Shown: positions 1 through 58,937 of the stretch, piece after piece | Numbering within the stretch: the first letter of the stretch is position 1 | Layout of the letters: each line of letters begins with the position of its first letter | Source of the DNA: Bdellovibrionales bacterium | GTDB lineage: Bacteria; Pseudomonadota; Alphaproteobacteria; UBA9219 | Direction: 5' to 3' | Assembly: GCA_041662785.1 (NCBI GenBank) | Contig: JBAZRW010000001.1 | Span: forward strand, 261,256-325,255 | DNA length: 64,000 nucleotides | Translations under genes and position numbers: made by a program | Notes under the pieces: generated by a model | Told to the model about the DNA's origin: nothing | Database searches by the model: none | Seen by the model: the letters and a program-made list of their open reading frames with translations, nothing else

Positions 1-788
1 TCACGCAACCACGGCTTAGCTTGGTCTTCCAAAATCTCCAAGGCTCTTTTCAAAGGAACCTGCGACCCCAACAGAGCGGAAAGCCCCAGCAAAAAGCCAC
101 TGCCTTGCAACACGCGATACCACGACCATGGCGGCCACATATCGAATTTAGCACGTATAGGCCCTTTCCATATGGGCAAAGTCACCGTGATAATCATGCA
201 AGTGACCGCGATCCCCACCAAAACCCATATACCCCAGTTGGCAATAAAATCAGAAACCGTGGCCACGCCGCCCATGGCCGCCATAACGCTAGGCGGCGCT
301 GTTTTACGCATATTCTGAATCAAATTAACGCCAAACATCCACAAAACAAAAGAAACCAAGATGATCATAAAGCCCGGGTACGCCACAGCATAGGTCACGG
401 CGCCCTTCATCTCGCGCGCCCTTGCCCCAATAGTTTGGATTGACGCGAAGGCTTTAGCCATCGTGCCCGATTCTTCACCAGCACGGATCATATAAAGCTC
501 TGAATCAGGGATCCACCCCTCCATAGCATCCGAAAGCCCCAGCCCCGCACGATCTTTCAAGAACCATTCCTTCAAAGCCAAGGCCGCTGGGCGGTCTGGA
601 TGTTTTCCCATTTCAGAGGCGTTTTGATAAAGACGGTCAAGAGAGCGCGAAAGCGCTTCGTTCATGCGGAGCATGCCTTCCAGCTTACGGTAAACACGAA
701 ACCGCTGCTTGCGATTGTTTTTGAACTGAAGCTGCGCCCACCGGCGGCTGATAGCCTCTGTATCAAACGATATTTCATCAAAACTCAT
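1..788 (-). CDS. Type II/IV secretion platform protein (GspF/PilC/R64 PilR-like), N-terminal part; the gene runs off the window at its 3' end
   Basis: Manual reverse translation from the ATG at 788 downward gives MSFDEISFDTEAISRRWAQLQFKN...AGEESGTMAKAF...GFMIILVSFVLWMFGVNLIQNM..., an open frame to position 1 with TM segments typical of GspF-family platform proteins. The start overlaps the upstream ATPase stop as ATGA. It is absent from the ORF track because it has no stop within the window. Confidence 0.5.
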   Translation of the reverse strand, partial: MSFDEISFDTEAISRRWAQLQFKNNRKQRFRVYRKLEGMLRMNEALSRSLDRLYQNASEMGKHPDRPAALALKEWFLKDRAGLGLSDAMEGWIPDSELYMIRAGEESGTMAKAFASIQTIGARAREMKGAVTYAVAYPGFMIILVSFVLWMFGVNLIQNMRKTAPPSVMAAMGGVATVSDFIANWGIWVLVGIAVTCMIITVTLPIWKGPIRAKFDMWPPWSWYRVLQGSGFLLGLSALLGSQVPLKRALEILEDQAKPWLR

Positions 789-2767
789 GGCATCACCCCA
801 AGTCTTTGTTCAACTTCGATCAGTTCTTTCTCGCTGGCCATAATCCCAACCTCAAATTCGGCATCGTCGGGAGAAACTTCTCCGCGCCTAATTTTCTCCA
901 AGGAGTGCCACAGCATGGTAACACCATTCATTCCTGTCGGCGACAGCCAATAATCTCGCGCCTCTTCCATGCGATTGTCTTGAAGAAGTTCCATAATTTT
1001 TTGGTCGGTTTCGATCACTTCGGCGCAAATCGTTCTTCCCGCCCTGCCGCGGAAACAATGGGAGCACCCTTCCGGATTAGCAACATAAACCTGCCGCATG
1101 TCTGGCTCTGACAAACGATCATAAACGCCTACGCTTCCCCCCTTGCGCGAGGAGTCCATGATGGCAAGGCCAGCGCGAACGCGCCGCGCAAGTTCCTTAT
1201 AGTGCGGGCCAAGTTCAGTCGGCGCCTCGGCCAAGGGAATGCGACAATGAGAGCACATGCCGCGCAATAACCGCTGGCAAAACATGCCGCGCAGTAAATG
1301 GTGATCATAGACAAGGTATGGCTCCATACCAATATCACGCAAACGCTGCGGAACCGCGAGCGCTGCATAAACGTGCGTCGTCGTGTAAACTTGACGCCCC
1401 GTCAAGGATAAGCGAAAGGCAAACTTGGCCGTTTGAATATCACGAACCTCACCGAGCATGACAATGTCAGGGTCAAGACGCAGGGCACAACGCATGATCT
1501 CAACAAAAGACTTTTCGCGCTGCTCATCTTTAACCGAAGAAGAAACGCCGACCTGACGCGCCCCGACGATACCGCCTTCAGGAGGATCCTCCACCAACAA
1601 ACAGTTCAACTGCATGTTGGTTTCCGCCATGCGGCGATTAAGCGTCACACGCAAGGTTGTCGTCTTGCCTTGGTTGACGGGCCCCGCAAACACGCGCATA
1701 CCCCCGGGCGCTTGCCGGAGGCTTTGGACGACCTTAAGTTGTTCTTGTGAAAAACCAAGAGAGTCTACGTCGGCCATAATAAAGTTTTCGCCGAACAAAT
1801 GCGCCGAGTCATATTGAAGGCGCATATCCAAATAACGCCCACCATCCGACAACGGAACCCACTGGCAACGAACCGAGATCACGCCTTTAGGCAAAGCCAG
1901 CGCATCAGGCCCCGTGGACGTAGAAGTCAACATGGCCGCTTGCGGCTCTTGCCAGTTCGCTGTTGCGCCCGACTGCCCCACCGAGTGGGAATAAACGGAC
2001 GACAGCATCAATTCGCCTTCTTTTTGCGTCCACGTCTCCCACAGGCGCAAAGCGCCATCAATGCGAAACTCGATGCGCGTACGTCCTTCACTAGCCTCTA
2101 TGTGGACGTCATTGGCGCCAGCCTCAACTGCTTTTTGCAAGGTGTCGACGATGCGGCGGCGTACGGCATTATCATCCAGCCTTGAAACAGACGATTTTCT
2201 ATCGGCATACAGATAGGCTTGACGAATGATGTTGGGGGTTACATAGCGAGCCGCATTAATCTGATAGCCATGACGCGCTGCCATCTGCGCAACCGACGTC
2301 ACCAACGGAGACAAGCGGTGCGAGGCACTAACAAGCCACATCCCGTTTTCAAACAAAGCACACAAGTTGCGTGCTTCATCGGGTATCTTGAGCTTACCCC
2401 CCTCGACCGTCAGAACATCGCCAGAAAACTCTAAGCCGCCCGCAATCGCAAGGCTGCGTTCGTCTTCAATTGTTATTTCTGCAGGCCGTTCAATCATCGC
2501 GCCCGCTTTTTCTGGCTCAAGGTCCGTCAGCTCTCCTGAATCAATTCCTTGTTTGCCTTTTTCTTTGGAGGAGGGCGACGTGGTGGCTTTTTCAGAGGCA
2601 CTGGCAGACTGCGTCATCCCGCCTGAAGTTCGTGCTTTAGCTCTGATTGTCGGGGGGGCAACGTTGGTCAATGTCGAGGCAGGAATTTCAGACAAGCGTC
2701 CCTTCCCCGTTTTTCCTTGAAACGCGGTGCTTATCATATCTTTTATTTCTTCAAGAATATCCAGCAC
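785..2767 (-). CDS. GspE/PilB-family secretion ATPase (R64 PilQ-like type IVb pilus ATPase)
   Basis: 660 aa. Walker A GPVNQGKTTTL, MLGEVRD (Asp box/Walker B region), and the tetracysteine CxxC...CxxC motif (CSHCRIPL ... CSHCFRG) typical of GspE-like ATPases. It sits next to a secretin and a platform protein. Confidence 0.7.
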   Translation of the reverse strand: MLDILEEIKDMISTAFQGKTGKGRLSEIPASTLTNVAPPTIRAKARTSGGMTQSASASEKATTSPSSKEKGKQGIDSGELTDLEPEKAGAMIERPAEITIEDERSLAIAGGLEFSGDVLTVEGGKLKIPDEARNLCALFENGMWLVSASHRLSPLVTSVAQMAARHGYQINAARYVTPNIIRQAYLYADRKSSVSRLDDNAVRRRIVDTLQKAVEAGANDVHIEASEGRTRIEFRIDGALRLWETWTQKEGELMLSSVYSHSVGQSGATANWQEPQAAMLTSTSTGPDALALPKGVISVRCQWVPLSDGGRYLDMRLQYDSAHLFGENFIMADVDSLGFSQEQLKVVQSLRQAPGGMRVFAGPVNQGKTTTLRVTLNRRMAETNMQLNCLLVEDPPEGGIVGARQVGVSSSVKDEQREKSFVEIMRCALRLDPDIVMLGEVRDIQTAKFAFRLSLTGRQVYTTTHVYAALAVPQRLRDIGMEPYLVYDHHLLRGMFCQRLLRGMCSHCRIPLAEAPTELGPHYKELARRVRAGLAIMDSSRKGGSVGVYDRLSEPDMRQVYVANPEGCSHCFRGRAGRTICAEVIETDQKIMELLQDNRMEEARDYWLSPTGMNGVTMLWHSLEKIRRGEVSPDDAEFEVGIMASEKELIEVEQRLGVMP

Positions 2768-58743: not shown

Positions 58744-58937
58744 AGGAAAGCCTCTATTAAACCCCAGCGGAAGGGACATCTCAGAACAAGAAGGAGGGGA
58801 CCCCCACCACGTTACGCACAAAAAGAAGAGCCAGCAAGCCTCCCCTGTTTTAAGGGGAAGATTATGAACATTTGACTAACGCGCCAGCCCAAGAAGCGCT
58901 TTAAATTCATGATGGAAGCCGCCCCCCTCCTTCCCTG

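Follow-up and report, generated by a model that had tools for sequence, protein, structure and literature searches.

To our knowledge, all functionally characterised type IVB secretion systems (T4BSSs) that translocate effectors act on eukaryotic cells. Plasmid R64 has a thin pilus whose role is contact with bacterial recipients. A type IV system that acts on Gram-negative bacteria in a contact-dependent manner is the bacteria-killing X-T4SS of Xanthomonadales, which also occurs in predator-like Lysobacter. The Micavibrio-type alphaproteobacteria are filed by NCBI under Bdellovibrionales; within this clade, the cultured representatives prey obligately and epibiotically on Gram-negative bacteria, and no eukaryotic host has been reported for them. 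A T4BSS of these bacteria is already annotated in databases (as IcmB and DotB in PGAP and IMG), but nobody has studied it. One 2022 paper mentioned the Micavibrio-type system in passing, and pT4SSi was listed for seven Micavibrionales MAGs by Needham et al. The genome paper of M. aeruginosavorus stated that there is no type IV system, yet its own gene table for strain ARL-13 has icmO, followed by genes that match in size the 176-aa protein and DotM described below.

The window analyzed here, a stretch of 64,000 nt, lies mid-contig (about 261-325 kb) in a 519,780-bp MAG contig of an uncultured alphaproteobacterium whose nearest relatives are Micavibrio-type genomes, and housekeeping genes flank it on both sides. 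Fifteen T4BSS genes were found in the window, all on the minus strand, as are the other genes of the blocks described below. They form three blocks, dotD-C-B-icmT, two dotI-family genes with dotH-G-(F-like)-dotE-(P-like)-dotN, and dotO-M-L, in which the Legionella/R64 order is retained. An earlier note on this DNA, made from the letters alone, had proposed about fifteen such homologues in this internal order, and profile and phmmer matches placed them where it had put them. Its main claim, a chromosomal Dot/Icm-like T4BSS dispersed among housekeeping genes in an alphaproteobacterial background, was supported by the size of the contig and by best profile matches to Dot/Icm families, not to VirB/Trb or Tad; no plasmid origin was indicated. 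Nine of the proteins matched solved L. pneumophila Dot/Icm chains directly by phmmer.

Block 1 spans positions 1-23748. The earlier note had recognised dotDCB there, and the block proved far larger; icmT, genes for a type IVb pilus and an accessory module of 12 kb, none of them listed in that note, also belong to it. The core consists of the DotD/TraH lipoprotein (10239-10712; PF16816 1.9e-25, NF033882 5.8e-27, solved L. pneumophila DotD 2.2e-17, lipobox LVAGC), the DotC/TraI core-complex lipoprotein (9389-10261; PF16932 2e-72, solved L. pneumophila DotC 4e-40) and the DotB ATPase (8151-9410; TIGR02524 dot_icm_DotB 1.2e-117, L. pneumophila DotB 6geb 2.6e-100, named DotB by IMG). The IcmT/TraK-like small membrane protein (7846-8109) had no IcmT match of its own in the Pfam search; it was assigned through its 68-80% identity to the genes after dotB in relatives' loci L084 and L085, for which PF28014 IcmT_2 matches had been precomputed. 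A 151-aa ORF overlapping icmT (7677-8132) was rejected as spurious. Between dotD and the DsbC-like gene, a conserved 94-aa membrane protein (10849-11133) is encoded, which was also called in L081, L084 and L085 with 44-57% identity.

Physically contiguous with dotDCB-icmT is a pilus cluster of the R64/Bfp class, with a lipoprotein secretin, PilO, PilP, an ATPase, a platform protein and two pilins, whose solved-structure matches were BfpD, BfpB, TcpE and the CFA/III pilin. Only the N-terminal part of the platform protein (PilR/TcpE-like, T2SSF; 1-788; PDB match TcpE) lies in the window; the full gene in L081 encodes 369 aa with a PF00482 match. The pilus assembly ATPase (PilQ/BfpD-like; 785-2767) matched PF00437 at 8.6e-53 and BfpD, its best solved relative, at 1.8e-64, with Walker A GPVNQGKT. 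The cluster continues with a PilP-family biogenesis protein (2879-3646; TIGR03021 9.8e-09, above cut-off), the R64-type pilin accessory protein PilO (3630-4895; PF06864 6.5e-33, full-length), the PilN/BfpB-like lipoprotein secretin (4896-6494; PF00263 and PF07655, BfpB 5.9e-54, N-terminus ...ALFGC) and a PilL-like protein with a TcpQ domain (6507-7538; PF10671 1.5e-15).

On the other side of dotDCB, the accessory module encodes mostly Sec-exported proteins. It includes a DsbC/DsbG-like periplasmic disulfide isomerase (11147-12148; NF008657 DsbG 4.2e-23, PDB match DsbG), which is an analogue of R64 TrbB with no direct similarity to IncI TrbB, and a TrbN/EtgA-like lytic transglycosylase (12212-12667; PRK13888 TrbN 1e-22, an SLT domain, an EtgA match in PDB). 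The transglycosylase is accompanied by a conserved 284-aa protein (12669-13523; 66% identity in L084 and L085) that lacks a recognisable signal peptide and matched no family or PDB entry; its gene adjoins dotO in locus L026. Four tandem paralogs of 469, 519, 458 and 524 aa (13700-19717), secreted and Cys-rich, were tentatively considered IcmX-like. Next to them, two secreted proteins of 227 and 438 aa (19724-21749) share a Cys-containing C-terminal domain (BLASTP 5e-22 to each other); the family reappears downstream of dotL in other loci, and the 438-aa protein has a possible SLT-like N-terminal part, with a weak SLT match (2.5e-4) in the L007 ortholog. An Ivy-like periplasmic protein (21756-22235), of the lysozyme/lytic-transglycosylase inhibitor type, had no Pfam match itself and was recognised by orthology, with 35-45% identity to L084 and L085 orthologs that match PF08816. 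The module is headed by a Wzy_C-domain membrane protein of the O-antigen ligase/O-oligosaccharyltransferase family (22345-23748; PF04932 6.4e-15), whose gene has the equivalent position in L084, L085, L007 and L013.

In block 2, two tandem genes of the DotI/IcmL (TraM) family (33855-34652 and 34628-35260; PF11393 1.3e-31 and 1.2e-42, NF038072, solved DotI 1.7e-18) both encode full-length DotI/TraM-family proteins, so the earlier naming of the pair as dotJ and dotI did not hold. They are followed by DotH/IcmK (32541-33677; PF12293 5.1e-69, solved DotH 5.5e-42) and by DotG/IcmE (31049-32551), which has a VirB10-like C-terminal domain and a short N-terminus (NF033900 2.5e-46 versus TraO 1.3e-26, solved DotG 7.8e-21). 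The gene in the DotF/TraP position (29511-30815) was assigned by its placement between dotG and dotE, kept in 32 loci; its product, with an acidic N-terminus, one TM segment, a coiled coil and a short C-terminal domain, gave no family or PDB match. DotE/IcmC (28390-29352) is TraQ-like (NF033883 TraQ 1.8e-14) and its position is kept in 43-46 loci. A DotP/IcmD-like small membrane protein (27798-28184) shares 46% identity over 72 aa with the N-terminal half of the DotE/TraQ gene, and orthologs of 125-145 aa occupy the equivalent position in 43-45 loci. DotN/IcmJ (27087-27785) scored 3.9e-18 on NF038221, below cut-off, matched solved DotN at 8.7e-12 and carries clustered Cys residues (42, 44, 45, 75 and 78). 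Directly upstream of the dotI genes, always in this position and syntenic in 7 loci, is a gene for a small protein with a C-terminal Cys cluster (35328-35831). The earlier note had called a GcrA-like gene, which failed at the profile level, with PF07750 at 0.0029 and NF050816 at 7e-4 (E 7e-4 to 3e-3), both far below cut-off for this weakly GcrA-like N-terminus; the protein may be a regulator.

Block 3 encodes DotO/IcmB, a TraU-type VirB4-family ATPase of 994 aa (55759-58743) with 27% identity to IncI1 TraU over 93% of its length (5e-86; phmmer 1.2e-97) and Walker A AQPGSGKS, whose relatives are named IcmB by NCBI and IMG; its gene is called in L083. DotM/IcmP (54347-55576; PF23127 6.1e-42, NF033890 3.8e-51, solved DotM 2.5e-21) and the type IV coupling protein DotL/IcmO (51337-53736; solved L. 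pneumophila DotL 2.5e-126, NF041447 TrbC 4e-110, Walker A GTTGSGKT) are separated by a gene for a conserved 176-aa membrane protein (53784-54314) present in at least 17 loci. In the alignment of this protein, an N-terminal domain precedes a single TM segment, and the tail is a conserved GVPxxADDVL; no PDB or family match was obtained. A GT4 glycosyltransferase gene (50302-51333; PF00534 5.6e-37) is always downstream of dotL, is syntenic in L001, L004, L006, L007 and L013, and adjoins the Wzy_C gene in L007 and L013.

The genes between the blocks are groES/groEL, gltX, comEC, lexA, flgE/K/L, ackA and, as the pta of the earlier note, a MaoC-PTA fusion, the separators that it had named. A Sel1-repeat protein is also encoded in the window (39644-40306). 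Of the proposed GTTC-N7-GTTC SOS boxes, one exact copy lies directly upstream of lexA (41071-41085), a single site whose count is not above chance; the sigma-54 promoter before flgE was confirmed as an exact consensus at 41211-41225. The GC3 of T4BSS-associated genes was 54% and that of the intervening housekeeping genes 62%, a somewhat lower value that fits lower expression but also acquisition long ago.

The system is not a one-off in this background. Among 564 confirmed relatives, at least 80 Micavibrio-type genomes, counted at species level, contain a relative of DotO with 55-95% identity, and all these genomes are labelled Micavibrio, Alphaproteobacteria or 'Bdellovibrionales'. In the synteny comparison, the T4BSS genes recurred in related genomes with unchanged order and unchanged housekeeping neighbours. 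The dotI...dotN-dotO-dotM genes form one block in L007, L008, L013, L018, L022, L023 and L033, dotL is also inside the contiguous block wherever tblastn matches extend that far, and in L007 the block continues into the Wzy_C/accessory module. Because the blocks are contiguous in several relatives, the three blocks of the window are fragments of one ancestral cluster; the split into three loci is true here and, judged from gene order, is a derived rearrangement. By the published MacSyFinder criteria for pT4SSi (IcmB, at least six further components within 30 genes, no relaxase), the window counts as such a system. No relaxase or integrase family was found among roughly 55 window ORFs scanned, and no tRNA gene in the window; the window together with its flanks was likewise free of relaxase, NikA, integrase and tRNA genes. 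NikA and NikB had no tblastn match in the window or in 85 other loci, and no exclusion gene was found in the window or relatives' loci. DotA/TraY, which the earlier note had suggested seeking outside its blocks, was not found in the window, the 10-kb flanks or any relatives' locus. On profile models, DotB scored 393 bits for Dot/Icm (TIGR02524) versus 238 for TraJ and DotG 158 for IcmE versus 94 for TraO, and the scores of all components lie below NCBIfam 'equivalog' cut-offs, a difference from Dot/Icm itself. In phmmer, Legionella chains versus IncI plasmid proteins gave 425 v 195 bits for DotL, 339 v 170 for DotB, 145 v 82 for DotH, 139 v 94 for DotC, 77 v 25 for DotM and 75 v 32 for DotG; the scores of the common components are about double for Legionella Dot/Icm. 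We infer that the T4BSS is a vertically inherited, domesticated, protein-translocating system and not a conjugation system.

The window encodes an almost complete I-type machine of the Legionella kind, made up of an outer-membrane core (DotC, DotD, DotH, DotG and the DotF-position protein), parts in the inner membrane (two DotI paralogs, DotE, the DotP-like protein and IcmT), the ATPases DotB and DotO and the coupling complex DotL-DotM-DotN, with intact Walker A motifs in all ATPases. The best reading, to which we give a probability of roughly 0.6, is a vertically inherited effector-translocating T4BSS with an adhesive pilus, probably for contact-dependent predation. It points to prey because cultured clade members, as obligate epibiotic predators, must grip Gram-negative prey and extract their contents; the host-associated lifestyle proposed earlier is hereby refined, since the partner cell is more likely bacterial prey than a eukaryote. 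The type IVb pilus would make or stabilise contact with prey, much as the thin pilus of R64 holds recipient cells in liquid, and its pilins may be modified by the GT4 and Wzy_C enzymes whose genes travel with the system. Next, the T4BSS would pass effectors through the envelope of the prey, with DotB, DotO and DotL supplying the energy, and the IcmX-like paralogs, variable in copy number, may be located where the channel ends, in the periplasm or distally. Against this reading count DotA/TraY, not found in the DNA searched, and IcmS, IcmW, LvgA, DotK, DotU and IcmF, not seen in the window, as well as the low expression in ARL-13, the lower GC3 and the eukaryotic targets of the characterised systems; no effector was identified, and a relaxase may be encoded elsewhere, given the mobA/L genes of ARL-13. 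If this is true, the T4BSS and pilus may be the means by which Micavibrio-type predators attack prey.

An unlikely alternative is conjugative I-type (MPF_I) DNA transfer, or a decaying integrated IncI-like element, with the relaxase encoded elsewhere and the thin pilus serving liquid mating. The grouping of dotDCB-icmT with the pilus, DsbC-like and transglycosylase genes recalls traH-I-J-K, pil, trbB and pilT of R64, the dotM-x-dotL layout mirrors trbA-trbB-trbC, the GC3 of the T4BSS genes is slightly under that of their neighbours, and mobA/L genes were reported on genomic islands of ARL-13. However, no element of DNA mobilisation or exclusion was found in the DNA searched, the housekeeping-interleaved layout persists between genomes with as much as 45% difference in DotO, the components lean to Dot/Icm, and decay is opposed by intact ATPase motifs and a gene set kept in at least 80 species. 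There is likewise a small chance that this is a Legionella-style effector system against eukaryotic cells such as protists, the carriers being protist-associated or grazing-resistant. The targets of the characterised systems, the solved Legionella proteins as nearest relatives and the Sel1-repeat protein favor it, and Needham et al. viewed pT4SSi carriers as host-associated; against it stand the obligate Gram-negative prey of the cultured representatives, the retained R64-type pilus with its role in bacterial contact, and the lack, beside the T4BSS genes, of eukaryote-like domain proteins and, in the window, of IcmS and IcmW, the adaptors specific to Legionellales. We judged very unlikely a non-translocating or self-directed role, for example in pilus-dependent adhesion or biofilm formation, in releasing or taking up DNA, or in exporting the Cys-rich paralogs so that they coat the producing cell itself. 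It could draw on comEC and a comM-like gene near the T4BSS blocks, on the Sec-exported proteins that dominate the accessory module, and on the expression index of icmO in ARL-13 (4.3 in attack phase and 3.5 in attachment phase), which is low and not phase-specific. The linkage with comM is not conserved, because addAB replaces it in the closest relative, L001, and the complete DotL/M/N complex with intact DotL Walker A is retained, a coupling complex being needed for cytoplasmic substrates.

Compared with known systems, the closest plasmid-borne DotO (43.5% identity) and DotL (41%) are those of the Methylorubrum extorquens AM1 megaplasmid, likewise alphaproteobacterial and typed MPF_I, non-mobilizable; that locus differs in lying on a 1.26-Mb megaplasmid, where tblastn over +/-20 kb detected DotO and DotL only. 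The X-T4SS is a possible functional analogue of the predation system preferred here, for which killing is putative: its effector/immunity logic has an echo in the adjacent Ivy-like inhibitor and the putative SLT-like protein, whereas it is type IVA (VirB/VirD4) and its defining components and XVIPCD effectors are absent here. With IncI1 R64, the window shares homologues of TraH/I/J/K, TraM/N/O/Q/U and TrbA/C in the same order (TraH, TraK and TraQ resting on the DotD, IcmT_2 and TraQ profiles, with no match in direct IncI-protein searches), together with the linkage to a type IVb pilus, disulfide isomerase and transglycosylase. For the NikA/NikB relaxosome, oriT region, exclusion gene, primase and shufflon of R64 no counterpart was found here, the system is on neither a plasmid nor a recognisable integrated element, and sequence similarity is about half that to Dot/Icm. 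From Legionella/Coxiella Dot/Icm it differs in its alphaproteobacterial and predatory host lineage outside Legionellales, the attached pilus cluster, a DotG of 500 aa versus 1048 aa, two full-length DotI paralogs versus DotI and a short DotJ, and four tentatively IcmX-like paralogs; the available DNA, which for all but DotA means the window, showed no IcmS, IcmW, LvgA, DotK, DotU, IcmF or DotA. The likeness covers DotB, C, D, E, G, H, I, L, M, N and O, IcmT and the DotP-like protein, as well as the order icmL-K-E-G-C-D-J-B and dotD-C-B of Legionella pneumophila and Coxiella burnetii. As in Dot/Icm, the genes are chromosomal, in more than one locus and with no relaxase in the DNA examined, and the highest-scoring solved relatives are those of Legionella.

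Profile searches and the ORF listing confirmed the main claim of the earlier note, that T4BSS homologues lie on the minus strand in three blocks, and the system was assigned to the type IVB class with several refinements. In block 1, DotD (10239-10712; PF16816, 1.9e-25), DotC (9389-10261; PF16932, 2e-72) and DotB (8151-9410; dot_icm_DotB model, 393 bits) were identified on the minus strand as previously drawn, while icmT, a pilus cluster and the module upstream of dotD had been missed. IcmT (88 aa, 7846-8109, minus strand) was assigned only through 68-80% identity to the post-dotB genes of two relatives, which bear PF28014 (IcmT_2). 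A 151-aa ORF at 7677-8132 overlaps icmT in another frame and was rejected as a real gene; it is a called gene in one public record of the contig, probably by mis-annotation.

Block 2, also on the minus strand, had a weak GcrA-like gene (35328-35831) ahead of two DotI-family genes; these were followed, in the direction of transcription, by DotH (PF12293, 5e-69), DotG (NF033900, 2.5e-46), a 434-aa gene assigned to the DotF position, DotE/TraQ, a DotP-like gene of 128 aa whose product is a paralog of the N-terminal half of DotE, and DotN. The GcrA-like gene noticed earlier was present, but its resemblance to GcrA was weak (E 7e-4 to 3e-3); it was always immediately upstream of the dotI genes in seven related loci and may be an operon-specific regulator rather than the cell-cycle GcrA. 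Block 3 comprised DotO (55759-58743), a VirB4-family ATPase of the TraU/IcmB type, DotM, a conserved 176-aa membrane protein (53784-54314), DotL and a GT4 glycosyltransferase (50302-51333), all on the minus strand. The gene for the 176-aa protein separated dotM from dotL in at least 17 loci, and the G, P, A, first D and L of the protein's C-terminal motif G-V-P-x-x-A-D-D-V-L were invariant in 12 aligned sequences. Judged by size and position, it corresponds to GMV_384 of the cultured strain Micavibrio aeruginosavorus ARL-13. The word-indexed homology search returned only 4 relatives of this protein, and its family profile matched nothing significantly among PDB sequences.

The T4BSS proteins were concatenated and searched against PDB sequences, and direct matches to solved L. 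pneumophila chains were obtained for DotL (2.5e-126), DotB (2.6e-100), DotH (5.5e-42), DotC (4e-40), DotM (2.5e-21), DotG (7.8e-21), DotI (1.7e-18), DotD (2.2e-17) and DotN (8.7e-12). Because DotO had no match among PDB sequences, its identity was settled through the IncI1 TraU protein (27% identity across 93% of the length, E 5e-86; phmmer 1.2e-97) and through database names, its close relatives being called IcmB at NCBI and IMG. The Walker A motifs of DotO, DotB and DotL were intact. By family profiles and solved chains, the I-type-specific core complex of DotC/TraI, DotD/TraH, DotH/TraN and DotG/TraO was complete, and DotI/TraM, DotE/TraQ, IcmT/TraK and DotB/TraJ were also present, together with the coupling complex of DotL/TrbC, DotM/TrbA and DotN (matches to NF041447, NF033890 and NF038221). 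TraY (DotA) and TraW (IcmX) of the IncI plasmid gave no tblastn match in the window or any other locus compared. A Tad/T2SS or VirB/Trb identity was rejected since the best matches were Dot/Icm families.

The genes separating the blocks were those listed in the earlier note, as profile searches showed. They consist of a SpoU-like methylase gene, groES and groEL; gltX, comEC, a Sel1-repeat gene and lexA; flgE, flgK and flgL with a methyltransferase-regulatory-domain gene; and ackA with a MaoC-PTA fusion. The last of these (48703-50184, beside ackA) joins a MaoC-like dehydratase domain to the C-terminal portion of a phosphate acetyltransferase domain and is not a standard pta. One exact GTTC-N7-GTTC SOS box was located directly upstream of lexA (41071-41085), and since the count of such boxes was not above chance, only the position of this one is meaningful. 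The proposed sigma-54 promoter of flgE was recovered as an exact TGGCAC-N5-TTGC (41211-41225) preceding the flgE rod domain; this site lies inside the longest flgE ORF, and therefore the true flgE start must be downstream of the GTG at 41119. At 60760-63100 and 63110-64000, beyond a comM-like gene, were two toxin-antitoxin pairs, HTH_17 plus PIN and YafQ plus RelB, and then a 644-aa ORF without a family match that ran off the window end.

A scan with one genome per species confirmed 564 relatives of DotO. The best 80 of these, with 55-95% identity, were all MAGs labelled Micavibrio sp., Alphaproteobacteria, Rhodospirillaceae, 'Bdellovibrionales' or 'Pseudobdellovibrionaceae', the last two labels reflecting the NCBI placement of the genus Micavibrio. 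From these labels and this placement, the window was taken as DNA of a Micavibrio-type alphaproteobacterium, in agreement with the alphaproteobacterial background first read from the flanking markers. In the ARL-13 genome paper, Micavibrio is likewise treated as an alphaproteobacterium in an analysis of ICE integrase relatedness (PMC3189940). The best plasmid-borne DotO relative (43.5% identity) was on the Methylorubrum extorquens AM1 megaplasmid (locus L082, NC_012811, 446852-489836), where a DotL relative (41%) was found about 18 kb from DotO; this megaplasmid is typed MPF_I and non-mobilizable, and the region is unannotated in PLSDB.

A type IVB system may serve conjugation or protein secretion, and the transfer region of an IncI plasmid was used as the reference for conjugation genes. 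NikA and NikB had no tblastn match (E<=1e-3) in the window or the other 85 loci compared, ExcA had none in the window or any of the other loci, no relaxase or integrase domain was detected by Pfam among roughly 55 window ORFs scanned, and the window contained no tRNA gene. Neither the relaxosome of an IncI-type conjugative system (NikB, NikA, oriT) nor its location on a plasmid or integrative element (integrase, tRNA/att, exclusion gene) was thus represented. A plasmid origin was rejected on the basis of the contig, which is 519,780 bp long (JGI Ga0376277_0000104, also an NCBI MAG), includes the window at roughly 261-325 kb, and carries housekeeping genes, including pheST and rplT, in the 10 kb past each window end. 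The T4BSS-associated genes had a mean of 52.3% GC and 54% GC3, compared with 55.2% and 62% for the housekeeping genes between them; this gap could reflect expression level, and the base composition showed no sign of recent import.

The shared components consistently scored higher in phmmer against Legionella than against the IncI plasmid, with 425 vs 195 bits for DotL, 339 vs 170 for DotB, 145 vs 82 for DotH, 139 vs 94 for DotC, 77 vs 25 for DotM and 75 vs 32 for DotG. The NCBIfam models showed the same tendency for DotB (393 bits for the Dot/Icm model vs 238 for TraJ) and DotG (158 for IcmE vs 94 for TraO). A protein-secreting system (pT4SSi) is defined in MacSyFinder by an IcmB homolog, the lack of a relaxase and, within 30 genes, at least 6 of 16 other components; here dotM, dotL, the dotI genes, dotH, dotG, dotE and dotN were within 23 genes of dotO, and a relaxase was absent.

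All window proteins were searched by tblastn against 80 loci to compare the arrangement of the blocks. In three related loci (L007, L008 and L013), one contiguous block was observed in the order GcrA-like-dotI-dotI-dotH-dotG-dotE-dotP-like-dotN-dotO-dotM-176-aa-dotL, followed by GT4 in L007 and L013, where it runs on into the Wzy_C gene and members of the accessory module. The same order was found in L018, L022, L023 and L033 as far as tblastn matches extend, and in 32 loci separate ORF clustering put the DotF-position family after dotG and before dotE. Comparison with the R64-type plasmid map and these contiguous versions bore out the statement that the Legionella/R64 gene order is kept. The nearest relatives (L001-L006) shared the dotO-M-x-L-GT4-pta-ackA arrangement of the window. 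Upstream of dotO, comM was present in the window and across L002-L006, apart from L005, whose contig begins at dotO and does not show this position. In a more distant Micavibrio group, dotO was followed by housekeeping genes. These results indicated that the three-way split is derived, and the arrangements fit a long chromosomal residence in which one ancestral cluster, estimated by us at about 45-50 kb from the summed blocks, was gradually broken up. When positions 1-10000 of L001, the closest relative at 95% DotO identity, were set against window 58992-60533, tsaE and addB/addA rather than comM were upstream of dotO; since the two loci differ here at 95% identity, the dotO junction has been rearranged very recently.

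Directly downstream of icmT and on the same strand, a type IVb pilus cluster of the R64/Bfp class was identified (window 1-7538, continuing into 12859-15221 of L081, the contig flank past the window start). It encodes a TcpQ-domain PilL-like protein, a lipoprotein secretin (BfpB, 5.9e-54), PilO (PF06864, 6.5e-33), PilP, an ATPase (BfpD, 1.8e-64), a platform protein and two pilins, so that all main parts of the R64 thin pilus/Bfp/Tcp class were in one cluster. The platform protein gene is cut by the window start, with its remainder on the same contig; beyond it are the two type IVb pilins (PilS, bundlin, CFA/III-like), then housekeeping genes and a separate Tad locus. No dedicated prepilin peptidase was found between the pilins and the next housekeeping genes, and this enzyme could be supplied from elsewhere, e.g. 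the Tad locus. The same pilus cluster was present in two relatives (L084 and L085).

Upstream of dotD, a 12-kb module on one strand contained, from its head, a Wzy_C-domain protein (22345-23748), an Ivy-like periplasmic inhibitor and secreted proteins of 438 and 227 aa (together 19724-22235), four tandem Cys-rich secreted paralogs (13700-19717, 458-524 aa each), a 284-aa protein (12669-13523), a TrbN/EtgA-like lytic transglycosylase, a DsbC/G-like isomerase and a 94-aa membrane protein, all on the minus strand. The order was the same in two relatives, with three and five paralog copies. The paralogs were tentatively regarded as IcmX-like. Their family profile matched nothing significantly among PDB sequences, hhalign found no similarity to IncI TraW, and Foldseek of a paralog model against PDB gave nothing significant, with IcmX fourth at E 0.7; the word-indexed search returned only 14 relatives. 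The 438-aa and 227-aa proteins have a common C-terminal domain, and their family gave no significant profile match to PDB sequences and no hhalign similarity to TraY. The 284-aa family profile also matched nothing significantly among PDB sequences, and the single-sequence AlphaFold2 model of the protein (pLDDT 47) was unusable. The Ivy assignment was made only via orthologs with PF08816, and the L007 ortholog of the 438-aa protein had a borderline SLT match; the Ivy-like protein and its putative SLT-like neighbour may form a peptidoglycan-enzyme/inhibitor pair. The Wzy_C protein and GT4 travel with the T4BSS genes and are mutually adjacent in L007 and L013. Pilins are known to be glycosylated by O-oligosaccharyltransferases of the Wzy_C family such as PilO and PglL, and by analogy GT4 and the Wzy_C protein may constitute a protein O-glycosylation module for pilins.

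In the main text of the ARL-13 genome paper, a type IV secretion system was described as absent, yet its supplementary file 4 lists GMV_383 as 'icmO' (2583 bp), and after it hypothetical genes 582 and 1215 bp long (PMC3189940). The sizes of these two genes match the 176-aa protein and DotM, and by length alone GMV_1708, a hypothetical gene of 2994 bp, matches dotO. Expression of the T4BSS in ARL-13 is low, with an icmO expression index of 4.3 in attack phase and 3.5 in attachment phase (PMC3189940). Needham et al. 2022 recorded in passing MacSyFinder pT4SSi in seven marine Micavibrionales MAGs. In the literature searched, which extended to reviews of contact-dependent predation from 2025-2026, no paper linked Micavibrio predation to a type IVB system. 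Annotation pipelines and one survey have thus recorded that the genes are present, while their architecture and possible role had not been described.

The analysis showed a near-complete I-type machine with intact ATPases, joined to a type IVb pilus and conserved in the absence of conjugation genes. The T4BSS is an order-wide trait of Micavibrio-type bacteria, apparently inherited vertically, and its carriers belong to a clade of bacterial predators. Through its PilV adhesins, the thin pilus of R64 stabilises mating pairs in liquid, and the Sog primase protein can enter recipients by way of the I1 system; if this holds, systems of this class are already known to be able to pass protein into Gram-negative cells. 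We propose that the machine translocates proteins and that, when the predator docks on Gram-negative prey, the pilus, its pilins perhaps glycosylated by GT4 and the Wzy_C protein, would mediate or stabilise contact while the T4BSS would deliver effectors into the prey. A probability of roughly one in three was given to the full reading, in which the T4BSS and pilus would be the prey-contact and feeding apparatus of Micavibrio-type predators, the system would be the first of the Dot/Icm class to send its effectors into bacteria and not into eukaryotic cells, and the copy-variable IcmX-like paralogs would tune the channel tip to different prey envelopes.

Cultured Micavibrio are obligate epibiotic predators of Gram-negative bacteria, and recent reviews of contact-dependent predation name no machinery by which they grip prey and drain it from outside. 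A Dot/Icm-like machine that is conserved, lacks a relaxase and comes with an adhesive pilus offers a genetically testable hypothesis for this epibiotic predation. The T4BSS has served to mark adaptation to eukaryotic hosts, for example when the host adaptation of Legionellales was dated; the same machine class in bacteria whose known partners are bacteria calls this equation into question.

Dot/Icm systems sensu stricto, those of Legionellales, include the IcmS/IcmW/LvgA adaptors, IcmQ/R, DotK and DotU/IcmF, none of which was detected among the window ORFs in Pfam, NCBIfam and PDB searches. The system described here resembled Dot/Icm in its sequences and relaxase-free chromosomal layout and the IncI system in its thin pilus, and such an intermediate form could inform the origin of effector systems from conjugation systems. 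It also carried an expanded, tentatively IcmX-like family.
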